Source of the DNA: a virus
Lineage: Duplodnaviria; Caudoviricetes
IMG/VR virus record: IMGVR_UViG_3300034126_000020
Coordinates: 212,811-276,810 of that record
Length of the DNA stretch: 64,000 bases
Direction: 5' to 3' (one strand)
Below the pieces are notes generated by a model. It was not told the origin of the DNA, made no database searches, and worked only from the letters and a program-made list of their open reading frames with translations. A program made the translations under genes and the position numbers. This document shows positions 31,329-46,876 of this stretch, piece by piece. Each line of letters begins with the position of its first letter. Positions within the stretch are counted from its first letter, which is position 1.

Positions 31329-32774
31329 ATGAGTGTACCACCGATTATCCAGTACCCTCTTGACCTAGACGGTACGTCACTGACGAACAAGATTGTCGGT
31401 GAGCGACGGGAAATCAGTACAAACACGGCTCGCGCGTTTGTTCCCAAGGCAGGTCCTTTCTACACCAGTTCGTTTGTCATCATCAACGCAGACACCGGGG
31501 TTCCCTTGGTGCCGGTTGACGACTACGTGCTGGCCCAACCGTTTTCTCAGGCTTCCTTGCGAAGCGGTAAAGACGTGCAGTGCGCTGTGGTCCTTAAAGT
31601 GCAAGCCCCTATCACGGTGATCATGGATTACCAAGTGGTGGGTGGTGAGTACTCCTGGAACCTGAAGGCGCTGGCTGACTTGATCGAACAGGTCAACCTC
31701 GATGAACGCCCTATCAAATGGGGTTCCATCATCGGACGTCCTACGGCGTATCCGCCGGCTCCTCACATCCACGACATCGGCGATACATACGGCTGGGAAT
31801 ACGTGGTGTGGCAACTGGAGCGAATCACCAACGCGATCTTGGTCGGTGACGAAGCGTCTCACGATGAACTGCGTCAACAGATGCAATTCATTCGGGATCA
31901 ACTGCAAGCGAACATCGATGCAGTGGACCTGAAGATCGACAACCACCTGAACGATTTCAATAACCCTCACAACACCACGAAAGCTCAAGTGGGTCTGGGG
32001 TCTGTTGAGAACTATCCGGTGGCATCGAACGCTGAGGCTCTGGCGGGTGTCGTTGGTAACCGTTACATGACGCCTACGCTGGTGTCGATTCTGGCCAACC
32101 GTATCTCTCAGGAGATCACGGATGCTCACGAAGCCAAGAAGAACAACCCTCACGCCGTTACAAAGGCACAGGTTGGTCTGGGCAGCGTAGACAACTTCGC
32201 CACGGCTTCGCAAGCCCAGGCAGAAGCCGGTACAGCCCCTGATGTGTTCATGACACCTCAGCGCACGTACCAAGCGATCATGGTGTTCGCAGGCAACAAG
32301 ATCAACCAGCACGTTGCTGACGTCAATAACCCACACCAGACCACCAAGGCGCAAGTCGGTCTCGGTTTGGTTGACAACTTCCAGACCGCGTCGGTGGCTG
32401 AAGCTCAGCAAGGTATCCTGAACGATCGCTTCATGACACCTGCTCGTACCAAGGCGGCTATTGATGCCATGGTCGGCAACGTGATCAACCAGCACATCTC
32501 GAACTTCAACAATCCGCACAACACGACCAAAGCGCAAGTGGGGTTGGGGAACATCCCGAACAACATCACTCGTTCTCGTGGGTTGAACTCCGACGATTAC
32601 CTGCTGACCGCTGGCGGCATCTTCGATCACGTGAACTCTGCGGATCACGATGCTCGTTACGCACCCAAGAACACCCCGGGTGTCGACTGCTCTGTTCACT
32701 GGAACGGTTCGGCGGCCTACGTGTGGGGCGGCGGTGCTTGGCGTCAAGTGTGGCCACCGCTGTGGCAAGATTGA
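31329..32774 (+). CDS. Tail fibre protein (phiKZ gp145-like)
   Basis: YPLDLDG N-terminus, four NPH..TKAQVGL repeats, C-terminal WNG..YVW.GGAWRQVW. Confidence 0.8.
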   Translation: MSVPPIIQYPLDLDGTSLTNKIVGERREISTNTARAFVPKAGPFYTSSFVIINADTGVPLVPVDDYVLAQPFSQASLRSGKDVQCAVVLKVQAPITVIMDYQVVGGEYSWNLKALADLIEQVNLDERPIKWGSIIGRPTAYPPAPHIHDIGDTYGWEYVVWQLERITNAILVGDEASHDELRQQMQFIRDQLQANIDAVDLKIDNHLNDFNNPHNTTKAQVGLGSVENYPVASNAEALAGVVGNRYMTPTLVSILANRISQEITDAHEAKKNNPHAVTKAQVGLGSVDNFATASQAQAEAGTAPDVFMTPQRTYQAIMVFAGNKINQHVADVNNPHQTTKAQVGLGLVDNFQTASVAEAQQGILNDRFMTPARTKAAIDAMVGNVINQHISNFNNPHNTTKAQVGLGNIPNNITRSRGLNSDDYLLTAGGIFDHVNSADHDARYAPKNTPGVDCSVHWNGSAAYVWGGGAWRQVWPPLWQD

Positions 32775-32798: not shown

Positions 32799-33305
32799 AT
32801 GTTTCAACGGCTGGATAACCTGTTCGCTGAGATCAGTGAAGAACTGCTGGACCTTGACGTCCTGATGATGAGTCCTTTTGTGTACGAGCAGGGCTTGGTG
32901 AAGTTTATCAAGAACGGCGGTAGTCATGACGTATTCACTATTTCCGATTACCTTGAGATTGACGACAAGCCAGTCAAGGTAGAAGGCATGGAACGCCTCA
33001 ACGGAACCATGTGGAAAGTCTGTAAGCGGTTGGCAGATCACTTCGGCCATGAAGGCCCGGTGACCTGTCACCTGTTTATATCCCCTAAAGACGGGGTGAG
33101 TTTCCCGATGCACACTGACCTGGATGATGTGGTTATTCACATGGTCACAGGACAAAAGACTTTCGAGTCAACGGACGGGTCGATGGACCTTGTAGCCGGT
33201 GACTCCATTTACATCCCGAGAGGCACGAAGCATCGTGCCATCAACACTGACAGTTCCCTTATGCTGAGTTTTGGCTTGGAACTCTTCACGGAAGCCAAAC
33301 TGTGA
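32799..33305 (+). CDS. JmjC/cupin 2OG-Fe(II) hydroxylase
   Basis: FPMHTD.DDV..HMVTGQKTF...GDSIYIPRG..H: HxD...H triad in a RoxA/Cupin_4-like pattern; GAGGA RBS. Confidence 0.85.
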   Translation: MFQRLDNLFAEISEELLDLDVLMMSPFVYEQGLVKFIKNGGSHDVFTISDYLEIDDKPVKVEGMERLNGTMWKVCKRLADHFGHEGPVTCHLFISPKDGVSFPMHTDLDDVVIHMVTGQKTFESTDGSMDLVAGDSIYIPRGTKHRAINTDSSLMLSFGLELFTEAKL

Positions 33306-34339
33306 ATCAAAAGACCATTTACGTCAAGACCACCGGTACTTGCAACCTGAACTGTCAGCACTGTTTCACCAACGGGAAGAACGGGGATAAGACCCACTTC
33401 AACCCAGAGGCCACAGTGGCCTGGATCAAAGACTTTATGTCTCGGTATCCGGAAGACACCCACTACCACATCGAGTTCCATGGTGGGGAGCCTTTCCTCG
33501 TGCCCTTGGAGAAGATGCAGATCGTAGCGGATGCGTTCATCGAACAAGAGAACGTGTCCATGTGTGCCAACAGCAACTTGACCTTCAAGATGACTGATGC
33601 GCACATCGACTTCATCAAGCATTATTTTGGTGGTTACATCGGGACCAGTTGGGATCATTGGATTCGCTGGAGCAACGAGAAGCAGGTGAACCTGTGGAAG
33701 AGCAATCTTCGGTTGCTGAAGTCCCATGGCATTGACATTGGTCTCAAGGTGTCTGTCAGTCGTCCTCTGATTGAGACCACGCCTGATTGGTTCATTGATC
33801 AGATGGAAGCCATTGCGGTGGACGATGTGTCGCTTGAGCGTCTGACCCACGACGGCAGTGCTGAGGTCAACCTCGACATCTTCCCCAACAACGAGGCTCA
33901 GGATAACTGGTACCTCGCGCTTTATTTGCGTTACAAAGAAAGGAACCCGCGCGTAAAGATTCGCACCTTGGACATCATCGAGCAAAAGCTCAAGATGAAA
34001 ATGGTAAGAGTCGACACCAACTGCCGGAACTGTGAGCAGAACCTTGTGACGATGAACCCAGATGGGTCGTTGTCGGGTTGCCCTAACGCAGCCACCAAGC
34101 TTCACCATGCCAAGTTAGAGCAGGGCGTCGATGCGTTCCTCAATTCCGACAGTCGGATTGATGAGATCGTAAGCGAAGTGACGCGGAGTGATACGTGCAT
34201 TACGTGCGACGTGTACGATCTATGTGGGGGTGATTGCCATCGTCTCCCATGGCAGAAAGGTCGCTGTGGTGGTCTGAAAAACACACTGCGTTATTTGTCT
34301 GGTCGTGCTCAACAGTCCAACCTGATTATAAAGGTGTGA
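33302..34339 (+). CDS. Radical SAM enzyme with SPASM-type Cys-rich C-terminus (rSAM-1)
   Basis: CNLNCQHC, FHGGEP, C-terminal CRNC..GCP..CITC....CGGDC..C; GTGA overlap with the JmjC gene. Confidence 0.92.
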   Translation: MNQKTIYVKTTGTCNLNCQHCFTNGKNGDKTHFNPEATVAWIKDFMSRYPEDTHYHIEFHGGEPFLVPLEKMQIVADAFIEQENVSMCANSNLTFKMTDAHIDFIKHYFGGYIGTSWDHWIRWSNEKQVNLWKSNLRLLKSHGIDIGLKVSVSRPLIETTPDWFIDQMEAIAVDDVSLERLTHDGSAEVNLDIFPNNEAQDNWYLALYLRYKERNPRVKIRTLDIIEQKLKMKMVRVDTNCRNCEQNLVTMNPDGSLSGCPNAATKLHHAKLEQGVDAFLNSDSRIDEIVSEVTRSDTCITCDVYDLCGGDCHRLPWQKGRCGGLKNTLRYLSGRAQQSNLIIKV

Positions 34340-34340
34340 T

Positions 34341-34877
34341 ATGGCCGAAGTAATTACTCGGAACCGGATGGCCGTCAACGCCAACTCCATTCTGAAGAAC
34401 AACATGAACAGCGGAATCAGTTGGGGGACGAATAACTATCCTGCCAACTCCATTCCCGGCTGGTTCGCTGGTACGACTGCTGGGGTAGACTTCACTGCCA
34501 CTGTAGCGCACTTCCAAGCCGGTAAACCCAGTGCGTCTCAGACAGTAGCTGTGCTGCGTAACATCGCAAACGTCTTCGGTGGCGTGCGGACTACGCGGAT
34601 CGTCATCTACTACAACAACAACGGAAACCTGCAAGTCCAGTACGATGGAACTGCGGTGGCCAACACTATATACGGTGTAGGTGATTTCGCCTCCCAAGCC
34701 AACCTCGGTGGCCTTGGCGTCAACACTCCTTTGTCCTTGAACATGTTCAACGCTGCCTGTCTGGCGCTTTGGAACGTGTACGTGGCCAACTGCCGTAACC
34801 AAGTCCTTACCCTGACCAACACCGTTTGCCACACGAGCTGCCACGTAAGTTGCCACTCGTCCCGCGGTCGTCGGTAA
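34341..34877 (+). CDS. Asn/Gly-rich protein ending in (CHxS)3-RGRR; candidate substrate of the modification cluster
   Basis: 178 aa with very few acidic residues; C-terminus CHTSCHVSCHSSRGRR; starts 1 nt after the rSAM-1 stop. Confidence 0.75.
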   Translation: MAEVITRNRMAVNANSILKNNMNSGISWGTNNYPANSIPGWFAGTTAGVDFTATVAHFQAGKPSASQTVAVLRNIANVFGGVRTTRIVIYYNNNGNLQVQYDGTAVANTIYGVGDFASQANLGGLGVNTPLSLNMFNAACLALWNVYVANCRNQVLTLTNTVCHTSCHVSCHSSRGRR

Positions 34878-34894
34878 TCATCGAGGAGAACATC

Positions 34895-35704
34895 GTGGAC
34901 AAGACTACCGAAGTGGAAGTCAAGAAAGAGCCTAACAAGCTGCCAGTACCGCGCTTTGCACCCATTGAAGGTGAGCTGGTTGTCATTGAGACCACCGTGC
35001 CTGTCCCCATCATGGTCATGCGTCGTAAGTTCACCGAGAACATCAAGTTCATCGTGGACTACGACAACAGCCGTCACAAAGGCAAGGTGTTCATCACGTA
35101 CATCACCAACATGGGTGTTGAATGTGAACTGCGGTTCGGGTCCGTTGAGTCTAAACTGGAACTGGTGAAAGAGTATCTTCACGTCACCTCCATGGTGGAC
35201 CTGCCGCAATTGGAAGACGTCGTGATCAATCTGTTGCTGGCAGCGACGGGCAAGCCTTACCACTTGGACTTCAATCCTCTGGACTTCATTCTGGAGAACG
35301 AAGAGATCCTTCAGGTATGGATGCGGAACTGCTGCATGGTCCCGACGTACGCCCTGCACAGTTACCCGCCCACTGAGGACCAGGTCAAGAACTACGAAGA
35401 GATCCCAGGTGATGACCTGAGCGGTATCAACTTCGTGCACTTGGCCAGCCACATCTTGTTCCCGATGTTGATTTCTGACGTCCCTGAAGAGCACTGGTGC
35501 TGGAACAAGACGTTCTTCAAGGAGTACTGCTTCGGTGGACACAACCTGTTCTACTACACGCAGTCGGAGAACAACCCGTTCTTCATGGCGTTGCTGGTGA
35601 TCAGTGAACCGGAAGCAGTGGGTGATCTGGGGATTGCAGCGGCTACCATCCTGCAAGAAAACCACACTTACCTAAAGGGCCTCGAACATGTACCATCTGC
35701 TTAA
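34895..35704 (+). CDS. Hypothetical protein of the rSAM cluster
   Basis: 269 aa from GTG 34895 (GAGGAG RBS); overlaps the next gene. Confidence 0.7.
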   Translation: MDKTTEVEVKKEPNKLPVPRFAPIEGELVVIETTVPVPIMVMRRKFTENIKFIVDYDNSRHKGKVFITYITNMGVECELRFGSVESKLELVKEYLHVTSMVDLPQLEDVVINLLLAATGKPYHLDFNPLDFILENEEILQVWMRNCCMVPTYALHSYPPTEDQVKNYEEIPGDDLSGINFVHLASHILFPMLISDVPEEHWCWNKTFFKEYCFGGHNLFYYTQSENNPFFMALLVISEPEAVGDLGIAAATILQENHTYLKGLEHVPSA

Positions 35705-36743
35705 CCAGACGTACGTCGATTCTGAAACACGGATTGACCGTACAGCAAATACGATCACCATCTCGCCACAGGTGGGGTTCGAATACATCCCTCAGCCTAA
35801 CGAGAAGGTCGGGACTCACTTGGGTTACGGGACCAGTCTGGATGCTTTCACGCCAGAACAGTTCCATGACCTGATGGTGGCGGCTAATGAGCTGAACGAG
35901 AAGGTTGTCATCTACAGCGATGGCCGGACCTACGCTCGCATGTACGCCATGTTGGTCAAAGCGGTGTTCCCGAACATCGACTTCGACAACTTCTGCTGGT
36001 TCATGCTCTGCAAGAAAGCCACGTTCAACTCGATCATCGTGGCCATGGGCGAACCCCGGGTTGACGTGCTGTCGAGCGTGGTGATCAACCGGGCTGTCTG
36101 CAAAGAACTGTTCGAAGCTGAAGAGCCTCTTCAAGAGACCTTCAATGAACTGGTCGCTGACGACGCTGATGCACTGTCGCTGGAATGGCACATTGCTCGG
36201 TTGCGGACTGAAGGCATTTCGGGAAAGATCCCAAAGGCAACCAAGACCATCTTGCGCCGCATCGCTCTGTCGAACGCGCATGATGCCATGGATGTCTGGG
36301 CCCGTCACCTGACCCGTCCTCAGTTCTGGGACATGGCCGGTGCTGACATGGACACTCTGCTCAATGCACCGTCCGTGTTTGAAGGGTGCTTGGGTCTGCC
36401 TCACTTGGCCTCCCAACAGTTGCTGCGTCCTGGCCTGTACGATTTCCGTCCGAACGACACGTGGATCAAAGGCATGCTGCGTGAAGCAGTGGACCTGATG
36501 CACCGTCTTGAAGATGGTTCGTCGGCTGAACGTGCCGCTGAGATCCTGCGTCTGCTGGAAGATGACCGCAACATGGTCGAGGCAGCTAACTGTCTGGACC
36601 GGGTCAACCGGATGTTCAATGGCGAGATGCGTATTGCCCTGGCCATGCGTGACACCGGCAAGTACGACGAGAACCTCATTCGTCACATCCTGAACATGGA
36701 GCTGTCTGTTCTCAAGGCAGCCTTGGAAGGGGCGACCTGGTAA
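35688..36743 (+). CDS. Hypothetical protein of the rSAM cluster
   Basis: 351 aa; TAATG coupling to rSAM-2. Confidence 0.75.
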   Translation: MYHLLNQTYVDSETRIDRTANTITISPQVGFEYIPQPNEKVGTHLGYGTSLDAFTPEQFHDLMVAANELNEKVVIYSDGRTYARMYAMLVKAVFPNIDFDNFCWFMLCKKATFNSIIVAMGEPRVDVLSSVVINRAVCKELFEAEEPLQETFNELVADDADALSLEWHIARLRTEGISGKIPKATKTILRRIALSNAHDAMDVWARHLTRPQFWDMAGADMDTLLNAPSVFEGCLGLPHLASQQLLRPGLYDFRPNDTWIKGMLREAVDLMHRLEDGSSAERAAEILRLLEDDRNMVEAANCLDRVNRMFNGEMRIALAMRDTGKYDENLIRHILNMELSVLKAALEGATW

Positions 36744-37738
36744 TGGAACTGATCCCTGTAGTGAACATACTCAGGGATAAGAAGGGTCGCCGTAAGGAGG
36801 CCCATCTGATCCTGTTCGAATGGTGCAACCTGCGGTGTTCCTTCTGCCATCAGGACCACGATTCCAAAGTGGGCTTCGATGCGGTTGACATGATCCGTAA
36901 AGCACAAACGCTGATCGACGAAGTGGACAGTGAATCGGAGATCGTGATCAACATCACCGGTGGTGAACTGTTCATGGACGATGTACCGGACTGGATGTTC
37001 GGTTACTACCTGACGATTGGCAGAATGCTGCTCGAGAACTTCCCTCATGCCAAATTGGTCTGGGGGACGAACTTGATCTTCAAGGATGTCTGGCGAGTGG
37101 CTCGTTTGATCCACATGCTGAGACCGTATGGTAAAGTCGTTCTGGCTACGTCGTATGATCCTGCTGGGCGGTTCAATGAGATGCAGCGTATTCGCTTCTT
37201 CGAAGTGCTTGAAGAAGTTGCTCCTCTGGTTGAAACGGTCAACGTGGTGATCACCAAGCAGAACATCGAGTCCTTCCTTGCGGGCCGGGAAGGTCGGGAA
37301 GTGGCTTGGCTCTGTGAGCAGTTCGACGTGTACTTCGATCACTACATCCCTAGCCAGATGTACGAGTACATTCAGCCGGATGAAGAGTTGATCAGCGCCT
37401 TGTACCTGCACCTGAACAAGAAGTACCCCAACTCCTACCCGATCAAGGACTGGAAGGCTAACGTGATCAATGAGACCACGTGCCGTTCTACCAAGATCAT
37501 CAACAAGGACGGCGTTGTCAGTACTTGTTGGTCTGAGGCAGGCAAGGGTGCGATCTTGGATGAGGCTGAAGGCTTGCGGGCTAAGGACGAAGCAGAGATT
37601 GCGTTCGTGGAACATTACGAGTGCTTCTCCTGTGAGTACTACACCCGGTGTGGCTTGCGGTGCTTCCTCCATGACACTGTCTTGGGTGAGAAGTCCAAGG
37701 TGTGCAGCATCAAGACCATGTTCGACGAAATCTTGTGA
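36743..37738 (+). CDS. Radical SAM enzyme (rSAM-2)
   Basis: CNLRCSFC, ITGGE, C-terminal CFSC....CGLRC...C. Confidence 0.88.
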   Translation: MELIPVVNILRDKKGRRKEAHLILFEWCNLRCSFCHQDHDSKVGFDAVDMIRKAQTLIDEVDSESEIVINITGGELFMDDVPDWMFGYYLTIGRMLLENFPHAKLVWGTNLIFKDVWRVARLIHMLRPYGKVVLATSYDPAGRFNEMQRIRFFEVLEEVAPLVETVNVVITKQNIESFLAGREGREVAWLCEQFDVYFDHYIPSQMYEYIQPDEELISALYLHLNKKYPNSYPIKDWKANVINETTCRSTKIINKDGVVSTCWSEAGKGAILDEAEGLRAKDEAEIAFVEHYECFSCEYYTRCGLRCFLHDTVLGEKSKVCSIKTMFDEIL

Positions 37739-37743
37739 CACGG

Positions 37744-37776
37744 CATAAAGGCAGGGGCTGATGCCCCTGCCCTATG
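37744..37776. terminator. Hairpin between convergent genes
   Basis: CATA-AA-GGCAGGGGC-TGAT-GCCCCTGCC-C-TATG. Confidence 0.7.
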
Positions 37777-37782
37777 TTCGCT

Positions 37783-38805
37783 TTACAGGCCGGCCTTCTT
37801 GATAAGGTTCAGCAGCAGTTCAGAGTGCAGCGCTTGAGCGAGGCCGATTGGGACGCCCTTCATACCAAACTGGTTGCAGTATTCGAAGATGCCCCACTTC
37901 TCATCTTCGGTGATAAACAGATCCACTGACGACAATGGACCAATCACCGTCAGTACCAGTTCACGCAGGCCTTCAAGATCAGCGCCGCCCAGTACGTCAT
38001 TGATAGCGCAGATGTCGTTACCCTTGGCGCTGTTGGTTTCAGAGCCCGTGGCTTGAGCCAGACCGGTGTTGTCCTTGTCACGGATGTTGCGACGTTGGCA
38101 GTACGCGATCTCACCGCCTTGACCTGTCAGGAGACGGTATTCTAACTTGATGCCGGGTACATAGTCCTGAATGCAGAAGCCCTGAGACTGGATGGCTGTC
38201 AGACCTTCGTTCTCGAACTTCTCAGCAGAGGTTGCATACTTGAACGACGGGTCGTACTTATGCAGCTCAGGCAAGACGTCAGCCAGTTGAGTACGGCCTG
38301 TCTTTAGGCCATCAAGAACGTCCACCACAGCAGTCAATGGAATCTTGTCCGGGTCAATGAGGAACTGACCAATACCACGAGCCCCGTCCAGCGGCTTGAC
38401 CACGACGCGGTTGTCCGGGTTCACCAATTGACTGAAGCCGTGCAGTTGTGGGTTGTGATGCATCGTCAGCGGATAGAAGTTCTTGAACAGGTGTTCGTTT
38501 TCTTCATCGCTGTTCAGTTCCACCGCAGCCAAGAGACGCAGTTGTTGCTCGACCTTGTTGTACCGCTTGATGGTGTGCATCCGACGGGGAGGGAGCAGGT
38601 TCTGCATGTCCATGCCGTCGATCTTCAAGGAGCCGTCATTGACGACCACGTCGAAGTTGAAGCGGGCATGTCCACCGTTGATGCTCATCTGTGGATCACG
38701 GTGGAAGTAGACCTCGTAGTTACCGTTATCCAGTGACATCCCTTGACTCAGTACATCCCAATTGTTCATGGCATGGGAGGCCACTACGACATTGATACGC
38801 TTCAT
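37783..38805 (-). CDS. ATP-grasp ligase (RimK-like)
   Basis: VVVKPLDGARGIG, CIQDYVP...EYRLL, SSVDLF......IFEYCNQFG; AGGAG RBS. Confidence 0.8.
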   Translation of the reverse strand: MKRINVVVASHAMNNWDVLSQGMSLDNGNYEVYFHRDPQMSINGGHARFNFDVVVNDGSLKIDGMDMQNLLPPRRMHTIKRYNKVEQQLRLLAAVELNSDEENEHLFKNFYPLTMHHNPQLHGFSQLVNPDNRVVVKPLDGARGIGQFLIDPDKIPLTAVVDVLDGLKTGRTQLADVLPELHKYDPSFKYATSAEKFENEGLTAIQSQGFCIQDYVPGIKLEYRLLTGQGGEIAYCQRRNIRDKDNTGLAQATGSETNSAKGNDICAINDVLGGADLEGLRELVLTVIGPLSSVDLFITEDEKWGIFEYCNQFGMKGVPIGLAQALHSELLLNLIKKAGL

Positions 38806-38891
38806 GAAACACTCCTTTATTGGCTATAGGAGACGAACCCTATTTAAAACTTTACTGGATCATTCCTATGAATATATCTGGAGGGTTAACC

Positions 38892-39062
38892 ATGGCTAAG
38901 TGTTGGACTCCTATACAGGAACGCTACCTGCGCTTCAAGATGGCAAGTCCGTTAAGACGTCTTGAGATGTACCTTGAATGCGGACCTAAACCTGCTCCTC
39001 GGAAATCCCCTGTAGGTGAGCCGCATTGGAGAGACCTTCTTAACGAACAACGAGCGAGATAA
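38892..39062 (+). CDS. Small hypothetical protein (56 aa)
   Basis: GGAGGG RBS, TATG at 38867; MAKCWTPIQERYLRFKM... Confidence 0.5.
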   Translation: MAKCWTPIQERYLRFKMASPLRRLEMYLECGPKPAPRKSPVGEPHWRDLLNEQRAR

Positions 39063-39066
39063 TTCC

Positions 39067-39285
39067 ATGACCGATTCCATTCTGCCAATACGTCGCCGTA
39101 AACCACTTGTGCCTCGTTTTCCACGTACGCTCGGTGATAGCGATTGGCTGTTGAAGAAGTTAAGAGAAGCGAACAGTCCAGAGAACGAACAGTTCCGTCG
39201 TGACTACCTCGGTCAATGGACCGTACAGCCTGCTGATAAGGAAAAGCCCGATGGACCTGATCGTCAAACCGACCGTCAACTGTAA
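39067..39285 (+). CDS. Small hypothetical protein (72 aa)
   Basis: Starts 4 nt after the previous stop and overlaps the rSAM-3 start. Confidence 0.5.
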   Translation: MTDSILPIRRRKPLVPRFPRTLGDSDWLLKKLREANSPENEQFRRDYLGQWTVQPADKEKPDGPDRQTDRQL

Positions 39286-40336
39286 CTTCAAGTGCACGTT
39301 CTGCTCGAGCACTCATCTCTCTGAAGACGCCACCGACATTGTTGAGTTGGCCCAGATCGAGGAGTTCATCCAGCGGTTCCACACGCACACGATCATCATC
39401 AACGGCGGTGATCCTCTGATGATGCCTCCAGAGTACTACTGGAAGCTGATCGAGATCCTCGACAAGCATGGCAGTGAGGCCAGCATTAGTTTCACCTCTA
39501 ACCTGTGGCCGTTCTACAAGAAGCCAGAGTTATGGGAGGAGTTGCTCAAACACCCCCGTCTGGGCGTCACAACGTCCTTCCAGTACGGCGACAAGCGTTT
39601 GAAGGGCGATGGTACAGTCTTCAGCGAAGAGGACTTCTGGAACGTCTCAGACATGTTCCTGGAGCGCATCGGTTACCGCCCGGGTTTCATTGCGGTGATC
39701 GACAAGGACAATGAACACACAGTCCTTGATACGGTGCGTCTGGCTCAGAAGATGGACGTCGAAGCCAAGATCAACCATGTGGTCGCTTCGGGCCCCGTGG
39801 TTGTGAAGAAAGGGATTGCCATGGGCAGTATCGACAACTTCTTTACGCAGGCTGACATCTACGGCCACTACATCGAGATCTACAACGCCGGCTTGATGGA
39901 GTGGGAATACAACACCAAGCAGATGGCGAAGAAGCTCAAGCATCAGCACACGACCTGTCCATTGGCGCGTGAGTGTGATTCGGGCATCCGTACACTGCAA
40001 CCGGGTGGTGGTTACTTCTCCTGTGGTTCTTTTGCAGATGACGGGGCGTACCCGATCGACTTCAAAACCGAGATGGACGGTGGGATGGTCTATCCATTGC
40101 AGAACCAGCCGGAACTGCAAAGCATGAAAGACTCGTGCTACATCTGTCCGATGTTCAACATCTGTAATGGGTGTCGGAAGACGATCTCTGACACCAAGCG
40201 CATGGGGCTGACTGAACAGCACTGTCGCAAGATGAAGAGTCAAGCTGCCCAGATCATCGAAATCAATGGCATGTCCGCTCACCTAGAGCCGACGCCGTAC
40301 GAAGATGAATCCCTTCCCTTGATTGCACGAGGTTGA
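39251..40336 (+). CDS. Radical SAM enzyme with SPASM-type C-terminus (rSAM-3)
   Basis: From ATG 39251 (TAAGGA RBS): CNFKCTFC, INGGDP, CPLAREC..YFSCG..CYICPMFNICNGC..HC. Confidence 0.92.
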   Translation: MDLIVKPTVNCNFKCTFCSSTHLSEDATDIVELAQIEEFIQRFHTHTIIINGGDPLMMPPEYYWKLIEILDKHGSEASISFTSNLWPFYKKPELWEELLKHPRLGVTTSFQYGDKRLKGDGTVFSEEDFWNVSDMFLERIGYRPGFIAVIDKDNEHTVLDTVRLAQKMDVEAKINHVVASGPVVVKKGIAMGSIDNFFTQADIYGHYIEIYNAGLMEWEYNTKQMAKKLKHQHTTCPLARECDSGIRTLQPGGGYFSCGSFADDGAYPIDFKTEMDGGMVYPLQNQPELQSMKDSCYICPMFNICNGCRKTISDTKRMGLTEQHCRKMKSQAAQIIEINGMSAHLEPTPYEDESLPLIARG

Positions 40337-40337
40337 C

Positions 40338-40553
40338 ATGTCCTTTCCTATCTTGGATCAAATGGCGTTCTTTCCACCCGGTCATGAAGTCAAGCTTCAG
40401 ATCCCTGAGGTCTTGAAGAAGATCGTCCTCAAGCGCTGCGTTGAAAGCGTTGATGACTTCCTCGACGTGGTCAGTGATTCCCGGGGTCTTAAACTGAGCC
40501 CTTATCAACGAGATTTCTACAAATGCCTAAGTCAAGAATCAACGTCTCGCTGA
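40338..40553 (+). CDS. Small hypothetical protein (71 aa)
   Basis: GAGG RBS, fills the gap between rSAM-3 and rSAM-4. Confidence 0.5.
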   Translation: MSFPILDQMAFFPPGHEVKLQIPEVLKKIVLKRCVESVDDFLDVVSDSRGLKLSPYQRDFYKCLSQESTSR

Positions 40554-41455
40554 ACCCGTGGTACTACTGCAACTTCCGGTGTGACTTCTGTTACCTCACC
40601 GAGCAACAGTTGAGCGACAAGCAGTTCATCCCGCTGGACGTCTTTGAACAACGCATCGACGAACTGCTGGAGCACTTCGAGATCGGTCACATCGACATCT
40701 ACGGTGGGGAAGTCTTCCTGTTGCCTCAGCAGTACCTGATGGACATCAAAGACATCCTGCACATGCGGGGCATTGATGACATCGTGGTCGTCACCAACCT
40801 GTCGCATGTACCGGACATCGCTCATGACCCAGCGTTCGACATCTCGGTGTCGTATGACTTCGGGGCTCGTGAGAAGCACGACCAGGTGTTGCAGAACATC
40901 TTCCAACTCAGCAACAAGTTCAACATCCTGACGTTGGCCGGCCGTACGTTCTTGGATCTGGTGACCCCAGACGAATACGTGCAGACCATGAACGGGTTCC
41001 CACATCTGAAAGGCTGTGAGATCAAACCGTACAGTTCTAACCAAGCCAACGATCAGGACGTGTCGTTTAAGGAATTCGAAGAGTTCGTCTGGGCTGTCAT
41101 CAAACACCCCGAACGTAACTTCTATTTCGAGAACGAGACTCAGGTCAAGGAAGCGGTAGACGGTAGCCGCAATGCTTTCTCTGATGACCACATCTACATC
41201 ACTCCAACCGGCGATTACGCCGTACTGGAGTTTGACAAGAATGACCGCGAGTTCTTCCTGACAGTAGACGGCATCGAAGGATACCTCGACTGGTGCGGGA
41301 AAGAGTATGAGCGAGTAGCGGACAATCCGTTCTGTGCATCGTGTACGTTCCACGGCGGGTGCCTCTCTGAGCACTTGCGGGAAGTCACAACCCTTGAGAA
41401 CTCCTGTAACGGGTTCCGGGGTCTCTTGTTAAAGTGGGTGGAGCATGGAACTTAA
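40523..41455 (+). CDS. Radical SAM enzyme (rSAM-4)
   Basis: CNFRCDFC, IYGGE, VTNL, C-terminal CASC....GCLSEH....C. Confidence 0.88.
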   Translation: MPKSRINVSLNPWYYCNFRCDFCYLTEQQLSDKQFIPLDVFEQRIDELLEHFEIGHIDIYGGEVFLLPQQYLMDIKDILHMRGIDDIVVVTNLSHVPDIAHDPAFDISVSYDFGAREKHDQVLQNIFQLSNKFNILTLAGRTFLDLVTPDEYVQTMNGFPHLKGCEIKPYSSNQANDQDVSFKEFEEFVWAVIKHPERNFYFENETQVKEAVDGSRNAFSDDHIYITPTGDYAVLEFDKNDREFFLTVDGIEGYLDWCGKEYERVADNPFCASCTFHGGCLSEHLREVTTLENSCNGFRGLLLKWVEHGT

Positions 41456-42503
41456 ACACGTAGAGCATCGGCAGCGATTGGAGATCACCCTCGACATCTT
41501 CCGAGGGTGTCAACACCATTGTTCAGGTTGCATGATTGATAAACAGTTGGGGGGAGACGTCGATGACATCCCTCAGTTGGCAATCATGATCAAAGAGATG
41601 GTTGATGCAGGGTATGTTGCGTTTGACATGGGGATCGGTCCCACTGACTACATGTCTTCTGATAACACCTCTGACGTCATGACCCATCCGGTCTTTCAAG
41701 AAATGGCTCAGTGGTTTCATCAGGTCACGTTCAATGCTGCCTTCCTCGAGAAGGACATGGACAAGTACAAGACCATGTGCGAAGAGATCGACCAAGCCAT
41801 TCCGGGTAAGGCCGTTCGCTTCCTGATGCCTGCGGCTCCGCACTTCTTCAAGAGCGAGAAGTTCGGGGACATGATCAGTGAGAAGCTTGCGTTCGTCAAA
41901 GAGCACCTGAAGGTCGCTTACTTGAACGAGGCAGGCTTCGTGGTCAACTGCACTCACGAGACGGTGGGTGAAGACTTCGATGACTTGATGAAGAATGGGT
42001 TCGCTGTGGACTTCCCGGTGGACAAGGACGACATCTTGAACATCCCCTATGGTCGTCTCAAGGTCAAAGACCTGATGACCGCTCAGCGGATCACCCGGAT
42101 GTCTCACCGCATCACGCAGTTCTACTCAGGACTGAATGGCACGGATGAACGTCGTCGCAATCCTGACCTTTGTTACCACACCGGGACGATGGTCAACCTG
42201 TTGTACACGGCAGGCAAGCTGTATTGGGTGCCTTTCCTTAAAGACGACTGTCCGTTCCTTGAGGACGAGTTCGTCGTTCCTCGCCCCTGGTCTATGGATA
42301 ACCTTCTGAACACGCGTCAGAAGGCCATGGAGCGCGCTATGGAGTATCTGAAGGACACTCCGTGCATGAGTTGCGTCTACATGAGTAGTTGCAGCGAAAA
42401 AGGGATCATCAACATCATGGAACGGATGCAAATCCGTGAATGCCTCGTGGGGTTGCAGTATGTCGACAATGATTCAGAGCAGAGCGTTCAACCTAACGCT
42501 TGA
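41445..42503 (+). CDS. Atypical radical-SAM-like protein (rSAM-5)
   Basis: CQHHCSGC; GIGPTD in place of GGEP; C-terminal CMSC....C...C. Confidence 0.7.
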   Translation: MELKHVEHRQRLEITLDIFRGCQHHCSGCMIDKQLGGDVDDIPQLAIMIKEMVDAGYVAFDMGIGPTDYMSSDNTSDVMTHPVFQEMAQWFHQVTFNAAFLEKDMDKYKTMCEEIDQAIPGKAVRFLMPAAPHFFKSEKFGDMISEKLAFVKEHLKVAYLNEAGFVVNCTHETVGEDFDDLMKNGFAVDFPVDKDDILNIPYGRLKVKDLMTAQRITRMSHRITQFYSGLNGTDERRRNPDLCYHTGTMVNLLYTAGKLYWVPFLKDDCPFLEDEFVVPRPWSMDNLLNTRQKAMERAMEYLKDTPCMSCVYMSSCSEKGIINIMERMQIRECLVGLQYVDNDSEQSVQPNA

Positions 42504-43485
42504 GATTCTGCAAGGCTGTAAGTTCCAATGCGTCGGTTGCATGGTGGACAAGGACTTTGATCCAGGTCCCTTCAACAAAGACCGTCGAGAACTGTTGGAC
42601 ATGGTCGATGACATGAAAGCTGCTGGCTATCGCCTGCGAGAGTTCACTGTCGGGCCGGTGGACGTCATTGCCTCCAAGGCAGGTGTGGACATCCTTGACC
42701 ATCCGTTGATCTTCCAACTGGCTCAGCGCTACGATTCGATGGTGCTGCCGTTGGCTCTGTTGACGGACGACGGGTTGGAAGAGCTGTGTGAGAAGGTCAA
42801 CTTCTTGATGAAGGGTAAATCCTTCACCATCGCTACACCGTTCCCGCTCAAGAGCACGTACAACCCCAAGCATCAGGACCTGATCAACCGCCGTGTGCAG
42901 TTCATCATTGACCACTTGCCGGATGTGAAGTTCGAGTTGCTTTACTTGACCGTGAACATGACGGGTGACTCCATTGACCAGTTCAGTGTCGAGACCAATC
43001 GTGACATCCATCAGCTGGACTTTGGGGTCAAACGCTTGGTGGAGTACGTGTTCCCTCATGTGCGCAAAGGGTTCGACGACCTGCTCAACCGTTCTGCCTT
43101 CCTGAGGGCCTTTGGTAAGTTCTGTGACGTGATTCACGATTGCAAGGACACCGAGTTCACCAGGTACCTGATCAAGCCTCTGGCGGACTCTCTGGAGGCC
43201 ACGTACCGTTCAGGAAAGTTGTACTACACGCCGACCCTGATCGAGAAGTTCCCGATCTTCCATCATGACTTCGTCGTTCCAAAGCCGTGGTGCAACACGA
43301 CCATCGAGCAGTTTGAGGAAGACCAGTACATGGAGCAGTTGGTGAACAACAGCAACAACCAGCCGTGCAGCGATTGCATGCATCTGGACCGCTGTGCTCG
43401 CGGTGATGTTCAAGCCATCATGGCACACCTGTGCAGCAGCGACTGCCTTGTCGACATGAAGAACCGTTGGGACCTGCCAGTATGA
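42460..43485 (+). CDS. Atypical radical-SAM-like protein (rSAM-6), paralogue of rSAM-5
   Basis: CKFQCVGC; TVGPVD; CSDC....C...C; shared blocks with rSAM-5 (GCM.DK, AGY, GKLY, FVVP.PW). Confidence 0.7.
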   Translation: MSTMIQSRAFNLTLEILQGCKFQCVGCMVDKDFDPGPFNKDRRELLDMVDDMKAAGYRLREFTVGPVDVIASKAGVDILDHPLIFQLAQRYDSMVLPLALLTDDGLEELCEKVNFLMKGKSFTIATPFPLKSTYNPKHQDLINRRVQFIIDHLPDVKFELLYLTVNMTGDSIDQFSVETNRDIHQLDFGVKRLVEYVFPHVRKGFDDLLNRSAFLRAFGKFCDVIHDCKDTEFTRYLIKPLADSLEATYRSGKLYYTPTLIEKFPIFHHDFVVPKPWCNTTIEQFEEDQYMEQLVNNSNNQPCSDCMHLDRCARGDVQAIMAHLCSSDCLVDMKNRWDLPV

Positions 43486-43931
43486 TTGACGATAAGTGGT
43501 TTATCACTGTGTTCACTGAGCCGGTCGTGATTCCTGAGTGGATGATCGACCAAGCGTTCTGTGAGGTCAACAAAGCCTTCATCGAAACCCCTGAAGTCAA
43601 TGAGTGGGCAATCGAAACGATCCTGCCTATGATCAAGAAGCTTCTCGGTGACGACACGATCACCATCTGTGCCAACCACTTCCACATCGGAGCGGCTGGC
43701 CTGACACCTCATGATCACCTGCCCCATGCGTTCACGTCAGTGCTGTACCTGACCGACGCTGAAGGTGAGTTGGTCATCCATCTGCCGGACGGAAAGTTCC
43801 AGAATGTCGTGCCTAAGGAGGGTCGGTTGGTTTTCTTACCGGCTCACTTACTGCATCACGTCGAACAATCCCCAAATGACGAGCTGCGAATCTCGTTTGT
43901 GAGTAACTATGAATACACAACACCCGTATAA
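43482..43931 (+). CDS. 2OG-Fe(II) oxygenase (HxH...H type)
   Basis: PHDH..FTSVLYL...GEL...EGRLVFLPA.LLHHV....RISF; ATGA overlap with rSAM-6. Confidence 0.85.
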   Translation: MIDDKWFITVFTEPVVIPEWMIDQAFCEVNKAFIETPEVNEWAIETILPMIKKLLGDDTITICANHFHIGAAGLTPHDHLPHAFTSVLYLTDAEGELVIHLPDGKFQNVVPKEGRLVFLPAHLLHHVEQSPNDELRISFVSNYEYTTPV

Positions 43932-44343
43932 AGACTTTCAGCGCCTCTACAACGAGATGGTGACTGATCACCCCGACGCATTTGCCAACATGGAGATCGT
44001 CGAGTCAGAAGAGCTGGTGAACAACGCGTTGCATTACTTCCGTGAAGCGACGTTCCCGTTGTTCTACCCAGCCAAGTCGTATTCGGTAGCGATCATCTAT
44101 GCGTTCAAGCTGTTTGAACTCTATGGGATCAGCATCTACGACTCCTTGCGTGATGAAGACCTGTTCTTAGGTCAAGACCCTTTCTTCGTGCCGTACGACG
44201 AAGACCCAGACACCTACGACGCTATCTTGGTTGGGTTGCAACAGATCCCCAACTGGATTGAATCGGGCTGGGCACCACAGACAGTCGAGTACTGCCTGCT
44301 CGAGTGCACGGAGGAAGGGGTTCAATCCGTTCTTGGAGGCTAG
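43909..44343 (+). CDS. Hypothetical protein of the cluster
   Basis: 144 aa, acidic, overlaps the upstream oxygenase. Confidence 0.7.
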   Translation: MNTQHPYKDFQRLYNEMVTDHPDAFANMEIVESEELVNNALHYFREATFPLFYPAKSYSVAIIYAFKLFELYGISIYDSLRDEDLFLGQDPFFVPYDEDPDTYDAILVGLQQIPNWIESGWAPQTVEYCLLECTEEGVQSVLGG

Positions 44344-44344
44344 T

Positions 44345-44902
44345 GTGGAAATCATTCAACCCTGGAAGACTGAAATCGCTCGCATCAACGTCAGGGATCA
44401 GTTCGACATGGAGACCTTTGCAAACGAGGTCTTCATGATGTACTCCATGACGCAAGGGGAAGCCAATTCTCAGGAGAAGATCAACGCTGAGAACTTCCCT
44501 GTCACGATGGACATGCGAGACAACCTCATCACCCCTCTGATTCAGAGGTTTGCCAAGCGCTGCTTCGACACGACCTTGGAAGACTTCTACGTCGAGACCA
44601 ATGGCAAGTGGATTGAGCCGGGTGAAGGACTGTACCCGCATTACCATCCAGGCTCTGTGGTGTCTGCGATCTGCTACCCGTGCAACTCGGACAATGGCAT
44701 GACCATGTTCGACCCACGAGGCAATGCATGCCGCGGATACCCAAAACCTATGCGACAAGCCCACTTTGGCAACTTCAGTATTTCGCCACGGGCAGGGGAC
44801 ATCTTCATCTTCCCCAGCTATATCCAACACAGTGTCCCTCATGTGACGGAGGACATCAGACTGTCCCTGCTGCACGAGTACTACGTCACTCGAAACTTAT
44901 AG
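44345..44902 (+). CDS. 2OG-Fe(II) oxygenase (HxH...H type)
   Basis: GTG start with GGAGG RBS; PHYH..VSAICYP..DPR..P.AGDIFIFPSYIQHSV...RLSL. Confidence 0.85.
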   Translation: MEIIQPWKTEIARINVRDQFDMETFANEVFMMYSMTQGEANSQEKINAENFPVTMDMRDNLITPLIQRFAKRCFDTTLEDFYVETNGKWIEPGEGLYPHYHPGSVVSAICYPCNSDNGMTMFDPRGNACRGYPKPMRQAHFGNFSISPRAGDIFIFPSYIQHSVPHVTEDIRLSLLHEYYVTRNL

Positions 44903-44913
44903 AAGGCTCGATA

Positions 44914-45465
44914 ATGAACATCATCCAACCTTGGAAGATCGAGATCGCTCAACTCAACCTGTTGGATCGGGTTGACAACGACGAACTCGCTAACGAGATC
45001 CACATGCTTCATTGCTTGTGCCCTCGTAGCAGCCAGACTCCTCTGGACGTGACGCCTGAGCAGTTCCCTGCCTTGGCTCACTTCCGTGATGAGATCCTTC
45101 GACCGATTGCTGAAGAGTACATCCGTCGGTGCTTCGGTGTAGAGCCGAAAGAGATCACCATCGACACGTTCGGCAAGTCGTTCGAGAACGGCGAAGCGTT
45201 GGGTTCTCACCTGCACGGCAATAGCTGCCTGACCAGTGTGTACTACCCTGAAGATTCGAAGGCTGGCATGTCTCTGACAGACCCGCGCTTCAATGCTTCT
45301 CGTGGCTACCCACGCCCTGTACGGGACAAGCACTTCGGTGAGCATTACGTCGCTCCGAAGGCCGGTGACCTGTGGCTCATGCCAAGCTACATCCAACACA
45401 GCGTAGAAGCCAACCCGGCCGACATGCGTCTGTCCCTTATCAACGACTTCCACTTCAAGGCGTAA
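44914..45465 (+). CDS. 2OG-Fe(II) oxygenase, tandem paralogue of the previous gene
   Basis: SHLH..LTSVYYP..DPR..P.AGDLWLMPSYIQHSV...RLSL; IIQPWK N-terminus shared. Confidence 0.85.
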   Translation: MNIIQPWKIEIAQLNLLDRVDNDELANEIHMLHCLCPRSSQTPLDVTPEQFPALAHFRDEILRPIAEEYIRRCFGVEPKEITIDTFGKSFENGEALGSHLHGNSCLTSVYYPEDSKAGMSLTDPRFNASRGYPRPVRDKHFGEHYVAPKAGDLWLMPSYIQHSVEANPADMRLSLINDFHFKA

Positions 45466-45467
45466 TC

Positions 45468-46121
45468 ATGGCTGACGAACAACCTCTTTACGAAGGCGCT
45501 GATCGCGGTCACTTCCGCACCATGCGACTGATCGACAACGCCGGTGTCGCTTTGCGGGCTAACTGCCGCATCAAAGAAGCCACGGTCTTCAACTATCTGA
45601 GCGATCTTCAGTACGCCATCGTGGGTTACGCCATTGAGTGGTGGCCTGAGAACACGCTGGCTCCTCATCAAGGCGGTGAAGCATATCCGTACATCCCGCG
45701 TAATCGTCCGGGCGTGACCAAGCTGTACTTCCGCATGAAGACGTCGGTGACGCCTAAGCTGCTGTACTTGGAAGATGCGATCATCAACGACTTCCTGAAC
45801 AGCAAGGTGCTGGCTGAACCGATGACGCTCCTGTCCTTCTCTCAAGAAGCGGCTGAGCAGATCACCAGCGCGAAAGCCTGGCGCCTGTTGCAGAAGTCTG
45901 CGTGGGATTACGCCAACGCAGTTCACATCACCAAGTTCGAGGCGTCTGCCAATGGCCCTCTGGCGAAGGTGCAAGAAGGCCTGCGGTTCGACTGGCGTGT
46001 GTCCGGCCAAGAAGAACAAATGGAGATGGCTCAGATGAGCGACTACCCATTTGCTAAACTCCGGGATTGTTACCCGGCCATGCAAACCTACCTGGAAGGT
46101 CTCAACAATGGCGGCAACTAA
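45468..46121 (+). CDS. Hypothetical protein
   Basis: 217 aa, starts 2 nt after the oxygenase and overlaps the endolysin. Confidence 0.7.
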   Translation: MADEQPLYEGADRGHFRTMRLIDNAGVALRANCRIKEATVFNYLSDLQYAIVGYAIEWWPENTLAPHQGGEAYPYIPRNRPGVTKLYFRMKTSVTPKLLYLEDAIINDFLNSKVLAEPMTLLSFSQEAAEQITSAKAWRLLQKSAWDYANAVHITKFEASANGPLAKVQEGLRFDWRVSGQEEQMEMAQMSDYPFAKLRDCYPAMQTYLEGLNNGGN

Positions 46122-46827
46122 AGAACAACTGAAGGAACTCCAGCGCAACCTCAAAGCACTGGGTTTCTACACTGGCATCATCGACGGTCTGTGGGGTGGT
46201 GCCTCTCACGGTGCTTTCCTGAACGCTCGCCGTAAGGCCGTGAACATGTCGAAGCCGTCTACGGCTGCCGATGGTATCAATGGCTTGCTGTTTGCCTACT
46301 GCAAGGCTCCTGCGTGGTCTGCCAAGGTCTCTGATGAGTTCCTGCGCAAGACCAACAAGATCGCGACTGATCTGGGTCTGCCGTGGGACGGTACCGATAC
46401 GCTGATGGCCTGCATGGCGTTCGAGAGCGGCTTCAGCCCCACCATCCAGAATGGTGCTGGTGCTCCGTACTACGGTCTCATCCAGTTCGGTGCTGCGGCG
46501 GCTAAGGACTCGGGCACCTCGATCCCTTCGCTGCTGAAGATGTCGGCCGAGCAACAACTCGACTACGTCTACAACTTCTTCAAGCCGTACACCGGCAAGC
46601 TGAAGACCCTCAGCGACATCTACATGCGCATCCTGCTCCCGACTGCTGTGGGTAAACCTGAAGACTACGTGCTGTTCAGTGAAGCGAACACCAAGTCCAA
46701 GGCGTACCTCCAGAACAAAGGCCTCGATGCCAACCGTGATGGTCTGATCACCAAAGCCGAAGCTGCGGCAAAGGTTGCTCAGAAGTACGTTGACGGCCTG
46801 CACCCGAACAACCTTCGGGTAGCGTAA
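46108..46827 (+). CDS. Modular endolysin (peptidoglycan-binding domain + lysozyme/SLT-like domain)
   Basis: LKELQRNLKALGFYTGIIDGLWG (PG_binding_1-like); MACMAFESGF...GLIQFG...QLDYV catalytic block; DANRDGLITKAE EF-hand-like loop. Confidence 0.85.
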   Translation: MAATKEQLKELQRNLKALGFYTGIIDGLWGGASHGAFLNARRKAVNMSKPSTAADGINGLLFAYCKAPAWSAKVSDEFLRKTNKIATDLGLPWDGTDTLMACMAFESGFSPTIQNGAGAPYYGLIQFGAAAAKDSGTSIPSLLKMSAEQQLDYVYNFFKPYTGKLKTLSDIYMRILLPTAVGKPEDYVLFSEANTKSKAYLQNKGLDANRDGLITKAEAAAKVAQKYVDGLHPNNLRVA

Positions 46828-46828
46828 C

Positions 46829-46876
46829 AAAGAAAAAAGAAAGACGTGAGAGGGAGCCCTAGGGCTCCCTCTTATG
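46829..46876. terminator. Bidirectional terminator
   Basis: AAAGAAAAAAGAAAG, then GAGAGGGAGCC-CTAG-GGCTCCCTCTT, ATG; lies between convergent genes. Confidence 0.75.

Follow-up and report, generated by a model that had tools for sequence, protein, structure and literature searches.

What are six radical S-adenosylmethionine (SAM) proteins and four Fe(II) oxygenases doing between the fibre-like genes and the lysin gene of a large phage? The question is raised by a block of genes at positions 32799-46121 of the stretch analysed here (the window), which comprises the final 64 kb of a viral record (IMG/VR record IMGVR_UViG_3300034126_000020). The record is 276,810 bp long and carries direct terminal repeats. 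The closest cultured relative is Pseudomonas phage pPa_SNUABM_DT01 (hereafter DT01), a phiKZ-related jumbo phage with the same gene order and with ~75% nucleotide identity across parts of the block. Judged by gene content and order, the block is one copy of a widespread, conserved phage cassette. Besides the enzymes, this cassette encodes a small protein with a C-terminal tail of Cys-His repeats, which is the candidate substrate of the enzymes.

The Cys-His tail

The candidate substrate is a protein of 178 residues (34341..34877, + strand). Its last 16 residues (DNA 34827-34874) are C-H-T-S-C-H-V-S-C-H-S-S-R-G-R-R, directly followed by the stop codon. The tail is thus built from three Cys-His-x-x units and a terminal Arg-Gly-Arg-Arg. 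In the AlphaFold2 (AF2) model, an alpha/beta body is predicted with a mean local confidence (pLDDT) of 88.8 and a global score (pTM) of 0.81, and the tail itself is of low confidence. The proteins at the same position in DT01, RSL2 and Atu_ph07 share the tail ending. Their bodies have diverged and the proteins range from 178 to 296 residues.

A DNA pattern for the strict motif is present in at least 118 contigs of IMG/VR. Among the matches listed, all 145 in-frame occurrences of the motif coincide exactly with the C-terminus. The invariance of CHxS within this set is circular, because the set was picked by that very motif, and sampling was repeated independently of it. A whole-protein search (82 homologues) and loci picked only by rSAM1, the first radical-SAM gene of the cassette (78 testable neighbours), yielded 154 unique proteins. 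The arrangement (CHxx)3-RxRR-stop is found in 141 of these, and most of the others differ by one repeat or an extra Gly. The Cys, the His and the three Arg residues of the tail are invariant in this sample. The fourth position of the repeats, on the other hand, varies: it is Ser in 95% of the first repeats, Ser or Asn (~48% each) in the second and Ser (56%), Ala (34%) or Asn (10%) in the third. Thus, the conserved feature is the Cys-His dyad and not His-x-Ser. A strict His-Xaa-Ser reading, for which the invariance came from the search pattern, is rejected.

The family extends far beyond these loci. When a profile covering the tail as well was run against 1.84 billion cluster representatives (50% identity), at least 854 clusters matched at E ≤ 1e-3, of which 572 also matched at E ≤ 1e-10. 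The canonical tail is present in 129 of the 142 retrieved cluster representatives.

Co-occurrence of the tail gene with radical-SAM genes

The tail gene and the radical-SAM genes lead to each other in both directions. Relatives of rSAM1 are encoded on at least 412 contigs of IMG/VR, and the tail gene is the next open reading frame (ORF) in 68 of 78 testable loci (87%) that were picked by rSAM1 alone. Conversely, 107 of the 113 loci picked by the tail contain a radical-SAM homologue, as do all 36 loci in which at least 2.5 kb is available on both sides. Within the 276.8-kb genome, radical-SAM matches are confined to the block, which also contains the single (CHxx)3 site. The clustering of enzymes and tail is therefore not a matter of chance. 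An earlier note on this DNA, made from the sequence alone, had singled out ORF 34341-34877 and had proposed a survey of gene neighbourhoods; the survey bears out this choice.

The conserved order is cupin, rSAM1, tailed protein, the 'DYDNS' protein, (a 351-residue protein), rSAM2, rSAM3, rSAM4, a 144-residue protein and (oxygenases). This order is kept in DT01, RSL2 and Atu_ph07. Marine contigs show a second layout, in which two tandem tailed proteins of ~130 residues are followed by rSAM6 and several paralogues of rSAM5. Some contigs hold both layouts, and the window corresponds to the first layout plus one rSAM5 and one rSAM6. The marine tandem-tail contigs in IMG/VR (at least nine) encode as many as seven rSAM5/rSAM6 paralogues. 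The tandem tailed proteins have no match in cultured phage records, neither as DNA nor as protein.

In cultured phages, rSAM1 and DYDNS occur in the identical 15 records. All of these are jumbo phages, namely DT01, the RSL2/RSF1/FLC group, RsoM3USA, Atu_ph07 and Phosso. A scan of bacteria (one genome per species) returned ~39 real copies of the cassette, of which ~28 are in assemblies of Bdellovibrionota or Bacteriovoracia. The copies in these predatory groups (26 of the loci inspected) are compact, with radical-SAM and DYDNS homologues adjoining the tail gene. The assemblies include contigs of 1.3-2.8 Mb, and some of the tails have four or five Cys-His units.

A different radical-SAM cluster is located right after YomR-like fibre genes in the Ralstonia phages PhiRP12 and PhiRP31 (PMC5468394). 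It comprises a 537-residue radical-SAM protein, an 'arylsulfatase regulator', a MoaA-like and an MgoB-like protein, preceded on the 5' side by unannotated ORFs of 125 and 295 residues. This cluster may be a further variant of the cassette.

Enzymes of the cassette

Six proteins of the block carry the CxxxCxxC motif near the N-terminus, and all of them have C-terminal Cys clusters. Five match Pfam Radical_SAM; the exception is rSAM5 (41445..42503, + strand, as are all genes of this section), which carries CQHHCSGC and is a paralogue of rSAM6 (blastp E 8e-36). On the basis of these motifs and matches, all six belong to the radical SAM/SPASM superfamily. The SPASM pattern of 7-8 Cys fits three or four of the proteins; it is found in rSAM1, rSAM2 and rSAM3, and rSAM4-6 have reduced sets of Cys.

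The gene for rSAM1 (33302..34339) directly precedes the tail gene. Its cluster motif CNLNCQHC occupies residues 14-21, and the protein matches TIGR04085 with 29.2 bits (cut-off 27). The match to PF04055 passes only after addition of neighbouring in-frame matches (28.8 to 29.5 bits). The cluster triad, the GGEP motif and all eight SPASM Cys are invariant among 34 homologues. rSAM1 begins 13 residues before the cluster motif and has no N-terminal recognition-element (RRE) domain of the kind used by maturases of ribosomally synthesized and post-translationally modified peptides (RiPPs). Without this extension, rSAM1 resembles enzymes acting on proteins. The anaerobic sulfatase-maturating enzyme (anSME; PDB entries 4K36-4K39) is the sole solved structure that aligns with rSAM1 over its full length, i.e. 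core and SPASM domain. The nearest NCBIfam families of rSAM1-4 are SPASM peptide and protein maturases (PapB, YhhB, AmcB, DarE, DynA, anSME and FxsB), all with scores far below the cut-offs.

A canonical 7-Cys SPASM domain (Cys 247, 262, 294, 297, 303, 307 and 321) is present in rSAM2 (36743..37738), which has the cluster motif CNLRCSFC and matches PHROG 1802 (E 9e-33). rSAM3 (39251..40336; ATG start set by comparison with DT01) passes PF04055 outright (E 2e-13) and contains eight C-terminal Cys. rSAM4 (40523..41455) likewise passes outright (E 4e-8) and has a shorter C-terminal cluster region with five Cys. The match of rSAM6 (42460..43485; CKFQCVGC) to PF04055 is weak.

The first gene of the conserved core encodes a cupin or JmjC-type Fe(II) oxygenase of 168 residues (32799..33305), and its stop codon overlaps the start of rSAM1. 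It matches PF08007 (JmjC_2) with 35.8 bits (cut-off 22) and passes the threshold of Cupin_2. Its iron triad HxD...H is formed by H105, D107 and H145. The nearest solved match is the histidyl hydroxylase MINA53, which is weak (E 0.008), and the cupin is far shorter than YcfD or MINA53. Three 2-oxoglutarate (2OG)-Fe(II) oxygenases with an HxH...H motif follow towards the end of the block. Oxygenase A (43482..43931; HDH...H) matches PF13759 and PF13640 and, with 25.8 bits, is just under the PF13759 cut-off of 27. Oxygenases B (44345..44902; start set by homology) and C (44914..45465) pass this cut-off with 45.4 and 44.7 bits, respectively, and are paralogues with 38% identity. The nearest solved structures of oxygenase B (3bvc and 2rg4) are uncharacterised.

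The inventory of the earlier note, six CxxxCxxC proteins, one JmjC protein and three HxH...H oxygenases, is thus confirmed. Of the profile searches that it had suggested, those for Radical_SAM and SPASM (TIGR04085) gave matches, whereas no RRE or PqqD domain was found and all RiPP maturase families stayed below their cut-offs.

Link to fibres and the virion

The gene directly 5' of the cupin gene matches tail-fibre PHROGs in 8 of 10 divergent loci picked by rSAM1 alone. The ends of the upstream proteins were compared between the window (32700-32774) and 30 other loci. In DT01-like and RSL2-like lineages, the upstream fibre-like protein has the common end ...AWRQVWPPxWQ. In marine-type loci, the upstream fibre protein ends with ...FAIALE...GLIEAVIL and matches tail-fibre PHROGs 19602 and 22593.

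Evidence from virus particles is available for Atu_ph07. The virion proteome of this phage (PMC6102473, Table S5) lists gp170 at 31.89 kDa with 8 unique peptides and 35% coverage. The calculated mass of the tailed protein of Atu_ph07 is 31,894 Da, and the masses of gp176 and gp177 agree with the table as well. Accordingly, gp170 is the orthologue of the tailed protein and the gene numbering is confirmed. In the gel, gp170 was detected in bands 1-9 with a peak in band 1, where proteins of more than 100 kDa run; other Atu_ph07 proteins of 30-32 kDa peak in bands 7-8 (PMC6102473). A covalent link could cause this migration of gp170 in the top band. The cassette enzymes gp165, gp168, gp169, gp171 and gp172 are absent from the virion protein list (PMC6102473). 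Based on this one published proteome, obtained from a preparation purified with polyethylene glycol (PEG) only, the tailed protein is a candidate virion protein.

Proposed function and alternatives

We consider it fairly probable that the target of the radical-SAM enzymes, and of the Fe(II) oxygenases that assist them, is the flexible Cys-His tail, and that the protein, once modified, enters the particle with the fibre apparatus. The substrate would be the 16-residue tail of the 178-residue protein. The radical-SAM enzymes would abstract hydrogen atoms at the tail and then install cross-links or oxidations at Cys and/or His; thioethers of Cys, conversion of Cys to formylglycine and cross-links to His carbons are candidates. 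The Fe(II) oxygenases would add hydroxylations, for which His or Arg are candidate sites. The matured protein would become part of the virion, in probable association with the fibre or baseplate apparatus. The block may be expressed late. In the third unit of the tail, Cys at position i is followed by Arg at i+4. The same spacing is found in the sulfatase motif C-x-P-x-R.

Several points weigh against this proposal. The Atu_ph07 particles were purified by PEG only, and the protein list also holds RecA-like protein, single-stranded DNA-binding protein (SSB) and ribonucleotide reductase (RNR) (PMC6102473). The loading buffer as described names no reductant (PMC6102473), so the shift of gp170 to the top band could also result from disulfides, from a trimer or other oligomer that is stable in sodium dodecyl sulfate (SDS), or from aggregation. 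The RSL2 record does not mark the orthologue, ORF068, as a virion protein. The tailed protein and DYDNS resemble no known fold and no functional analogy backs their roles. A Cys-His tail with a period of four could simply bind metal. Finally, a tail of 16 residues seems a small target for six radical-SAM enzymes and four oxygenases, and some of these enzymes may act elsewhere, e.g. on the fibres.

This last point leads to the alternative that survives best, although we regard it as unlikely: the enzymes modify fibres or another virion protein, and the tailed protein is an unmodified accessory such as a metal- or Fe-S-binding adaptor, a scaffold or a fibre chaperone. The large number of enzymes and the position of the cassette behind a fibre gene would fit such a role, and three Cys-His dyads are plausible metal ligands. 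Furthermore, the x positions of the tail vary widely and the number of rSAM5/rSAM6 paralogues differs greatly between loci. However, the upstream fibre proteins differ completely between lineages whereas the tail does not, and the fibre proteins here have only one or two Cys and no shared motif. The tight adjacency of rSAM1 and the tail gene, together with a tail that is strictly terminal, disordered and near-invariant, is classically seen in maturase-substrate pairs.

It is quite improbable that the system is a true RiPP, in which the 160-residue body acts as an extended leader and the 16 residues of the tail, once modified, are cleaved off and released as a bioactive or metal-binding peptide. 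A C-terminal, core-like motif next to SPASM enzymes is indeed found in many RiPP clusters. The body, on the other hand, is conserved and confidently folded, unlike a leader, and no conserved cleavage site precedes the tail. Pfam and NCBIfam scans detected no protease, exporter or RRE/PqqD domain in the cassette, and the Atu_ph07 orthologue is found in particles with its 35% coverage (PMC6102473). The earlier note had left a modified virion protein and a modified peptide side by side. The Atu_ph07 orthologue favours the former; a free modified peptide is less likely because the tail is carried by a well-folded body that is found in particles and the cassette encodes neither protease nor exporter.

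We find it hardly credible that the product or target of the cluster is a nucleotide, a DNA base, a sugar or a lipid (in an auxiliary metabolic or anti-defence role), the tailed protein being unrelated. In favour of this view, the DT01 paper loosely associates radical-SAM genes with the repair of DNA and the metabolism of the host (PMC8541153), a PHROG family matched by oxygenases A and B (phrog_274) is labelled 'DNA endonuclease V', and there are weak matches to the N-terminal cores of QueE, MoaA and viperin. These weak matches, however, are far under the cut-offs and cover the generic radical-SAM core only. A SPASM domain suggests that the substrate is a peptide or protein, the cassette goes with fibre genes and not with replication genes, and it contains no glycosyltransferase, DpdA/Tgt, QueC/D, TET/JBP or nucleotide-binding partner. 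DNA modification is rejected, as no supporting DNA- or nucleotide-modifying domain was found in the block. Together with the kinship to SPASM maturases and the co-occurrence of the enzymes with the tail, this agrees with the earlier view of a locus for protein modification and not DNA modification.

Modification of the Cys-His tail, followed by entry into the particle, is thus the reading that we retain. A wider version of it is put forward only tentatively. In this version, phages of several unrelated lineages (phiKZ-like, Rak2-like and marine T4-like) and predatory Bdellovibrionota would share a dedicated radical-SAM machinery. It would act on a small protein of the adhesion apparatus, whose C-terminal tail would receive a covalent modification centred on Cys/His and so far undescribed, and would thereby staple or lock the fibre that recognises the host or prey. 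Maturation of a virus particle by radical-SAM enzymes would be the first of its kind.

Layout of the block and remaining proteins

The genes around the block are typical for a phiKZ-related jumbo genome and include a 2128-residue tail protein of the phiKZ gp181 type with a transglycosylase domain, SbcC, RNase H and UvsX. Two fibre-like virion proteins are encoded upstream on the + strand. Protein A (28868..31258), with NNPHxxTKAQVGLG repeats, matches PHROG 13857 (tail protein, E 5e-138) and PHROG 2163 (virion structural protein), and a terminator-like hairpin is found at the 3' side of its gene. The gene of protein B (31329..32774) is located immediately 5' of the cassette; the protein matches PHROG 2163 (E 2e-130) and has the conserved end ...AWRQVWPPLWQD. 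At the other end of the block, a lysin of the phiKZ gp144 type (46108..46827, +), with peptidoglycan (PG)-binding and transglycosylase parts, matches PHROG 4928 (E 3e-65) and gives weak matches to PG_binding and SLT. A tail fibre at the front and an endolysin at the end, as described in the earlier note, are supported by these PHROG matches.

Gene junctions within the block overlap or are at most 17 nt apart, also as previously described. The further claim that all genes lie on the + strand holds for the enzymes and the uncharacterised proteins but misses an ATP-grasp gene (GSH-S_ATP-like, 340 residues; PF02955, 23.1 bits) on the minus strand between rSAM2 and rSAM3 (37783-38805). This gene has no counterpart in DT01 and is found in one other locus only; from this distribution, it is a lineage-specific insertion outside the conserved cassette. 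A GC-rich hairpin read from the sequence (37750-37771) is located between the convergent genes of rSAM2 (+) and the ATP-grasp protein (-), and a second one (46850-46871) follows the lysin gene. These hairpins close the two units into which the earlier note had divided the block. The division itself results from the insertion of the minus-strand gene; it is lineage-specific and not a feature of the cassette. A second ATP-grasp gene of the R2K clade (46881-47621, -; PF18299, E 9e-29) is convergent with the lysin gene and is kept in DT01 (gp051). Neither ATP-grasp gene is accepted as a core member, the former being an insertion and the latter lying outside the cassette, on the opposite strand and in DT01-like phages only.

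Antisense ORFs of 347-463 residues (31377-32768, 34610-35665, 35643-36686 and 36683-37741, all -) are located opposite nearly every gene of the block. None of the antisense ORFs of the block has homology support. Since homology backs the + strand, this is the coding strand and the antisense ORFs are shadows. Several gene starts were set later than the start of the longest ORF, e.g. the GTG of DYDNS at 34895 behind GAGGAG. A scan for sigma-70 promoters and terminators performed no better than on shuffled sequences (7 promoters compared to 11.4 expected).

Instead of the four larger uncharacterised proteins of the earlier count, the block encodes five of more than 140 residues, including the tailed protein. 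DYDNS (34895..35704, +; 269 residues), a conserved partner, starts with GTG behind a GAGGAG Shine-Dalgarno sequence and is next after the tail gene in most loci. Its AF2 model has a pLDDT of 88.2. For the body of the tailed protein and for DYDNS, fold searches of the PDB (by Foldseek and VIA wide), BFVD and the AFDB clusters brought up nothing beyond the uncharacterised families of the two proteins themselves, and Z scores of unrelated structures did not exceed 4.1 and 4.9. The 351-residue protein (35688..36743, +) is an accessory member with homologues (E ≤ 1e-5) at the same position in 15 loci and without any match in Pfam, PHROG and NCBIfam. The 144-residue protein (43909..44343, +) is a conserved member, which matches PHROG 20737 (E 1e-38), is found in 19 loci at E ≤ 1e-5 and is present in RSL2. 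Feature searches of the ESM Atlas with DYDNS, the 351-residue and the 144-residue proteins gave no usable match. The 217-residue protein (45468..46121, +) is the orthologue of DT01 gp053; it has a match in one fetched locus only and no family match. Of the three small ORFs counted earlier, 40338..40553 (+) between rSAM3 and rSAM4 is clearly conserved, whereas the others are not. It shares 55% identity over 60 residues with DT01, in a stretch that carries no annotation there, and probably represents a genuine gene that was overlooked.

Implications

Radical-SAM/SPASM chemistry is known from antibiotic-like peptides, from cofactors and from a few cellular proteins. To our knowledge, it has not been described in virus particles. 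The cassette offers a single defined candidate substrate, the 16-residue tail of a soluble 178-residue protein, with six candidate enzymes encoded in the adjoining genes, and is directly testable. Cultured relatives exist in DT01, RSL2/RSF1, FLC6 and Atu_ph07. The family reaches the abundant marine myophages, whose host-recognition region has been noted for 'radical SAM cassettes', and predatory bacteria. If the tail is modified, this would mean new enzyme chemistry on Cys-His motifs, a new step in virion assembly and possibly a new determinant of fibre stability or host recognition.

Comparison with known systems

Parts of the cassette have been listed before. 'Six radical SAM genes' are reported for DT01 (PMC8541153) and FLC6 (PMC8066314); these are the same genes as here, either syntenic or homologous. 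In pelagimyophages, the host recognition cluster has been described to contain cassettes of radical-SAM genes beside tail-fibre genes (Zaragoza-Solas et al. 2020, PMC7029224), which are probably the same as this cassette. The three papers list the genes and give no function, tailed protein or conserved order, in line with the suggestion of the earlier note that related jumbo phages carry similar genes with no function assigned. A full-text search of the literature found nothing that describes the tailed protein or gives the cassette a function.

Strict membership in the RiPPs is improbable, as the scans detected no RRE, protease or transporter and the body is folded and found in Atu_ph07 virions. 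The CXXX-repeat system (target TIGR04114, maturase TIGR04115) has, like the tail, a Cys at every fourth residue beside radical-SAM/SPASM enzymes. Unlike in that system, the tail here usually has three repeats with an obligatory His in each and a fixed RGRR end. The maturase TIGR04115 is rejected, with a best score in the whole genome of 19.6 bits compared to a cut-off of 350.

In the triceptide systems (FxsB with FxSxx-COOH proteins, GrrM, YhhB and AmcB), a SPASM enzyme is paired with an aromatic-x-x motif at or near the extreme C-terminus, and rSAM1 weakly matches FxsB, YhhB and AmcB, with 37-48 bits compared to cut-offs of 370-445. By analogy, the His-x-x units of the tail could be cross-linked as in triceptides. 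The invariant Cys before each His has no counterpart there, and the candidate substrate here is a folded, probably virion-associated protein of 178 residues. Membership in FxsB, GrrM, YhhB, AmcB and PapB is rejected (18-49 bits compared to cut-offs of 310-445). The anSME family (TIGR03942) provides a minimal radical-SAM/SPASM enzyme without RRE that acts on Cys or Ser of a full-length protein. The tail differs from its targets, since C-H-x-x-R has no conserved Pro or Ala at i+2, and here three repeats are combined with several enzymes. Membership is rejected with 37.8 (rSAM1) and 34.7 bits compared to 349, and no sulfatase is encoded nearby.

The closest described system is the HXS antiphage system, in which HxsA is matured by the radical-SAM enzymes HxsB and HxsC with HxsD, and an S-H-R-S-S repeat carries a mass shift of +8 Da (Li et al., Nat Commun 2026, PMC13128918). 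The block is not a member of this system. Scores are 27.3 bits compared to 370 for HxsB (TIGR03978) and 20.6 and 27.1 bits compared to 267.9 for HxsC (TIGR03977), no protein of the block matches HxsA (TIGR03979) or HxsD (TIGR03976), and the tailed protein has no NCBIfam or Pfam match. HXS is bacterial, periplasmic and defensive, whereas the cassette is phage-encoded and virion-linked. Its tail consists of Cys-His dyads and a terminal RGRR, with a Ser that is not invariant (48-56% in repeats 2 and 3), the tailed protein has no signal peptide or PG-binding domain, and additional oxygenases are present. Nevertheless, the cassette is similar to HXS on paper: a folded protein with short His-containing repeats is accompanied by paired radical-SAM enzymes and a small partner (PMC13128918), and C-H-x-S opens the tail in 95% of the homologues.

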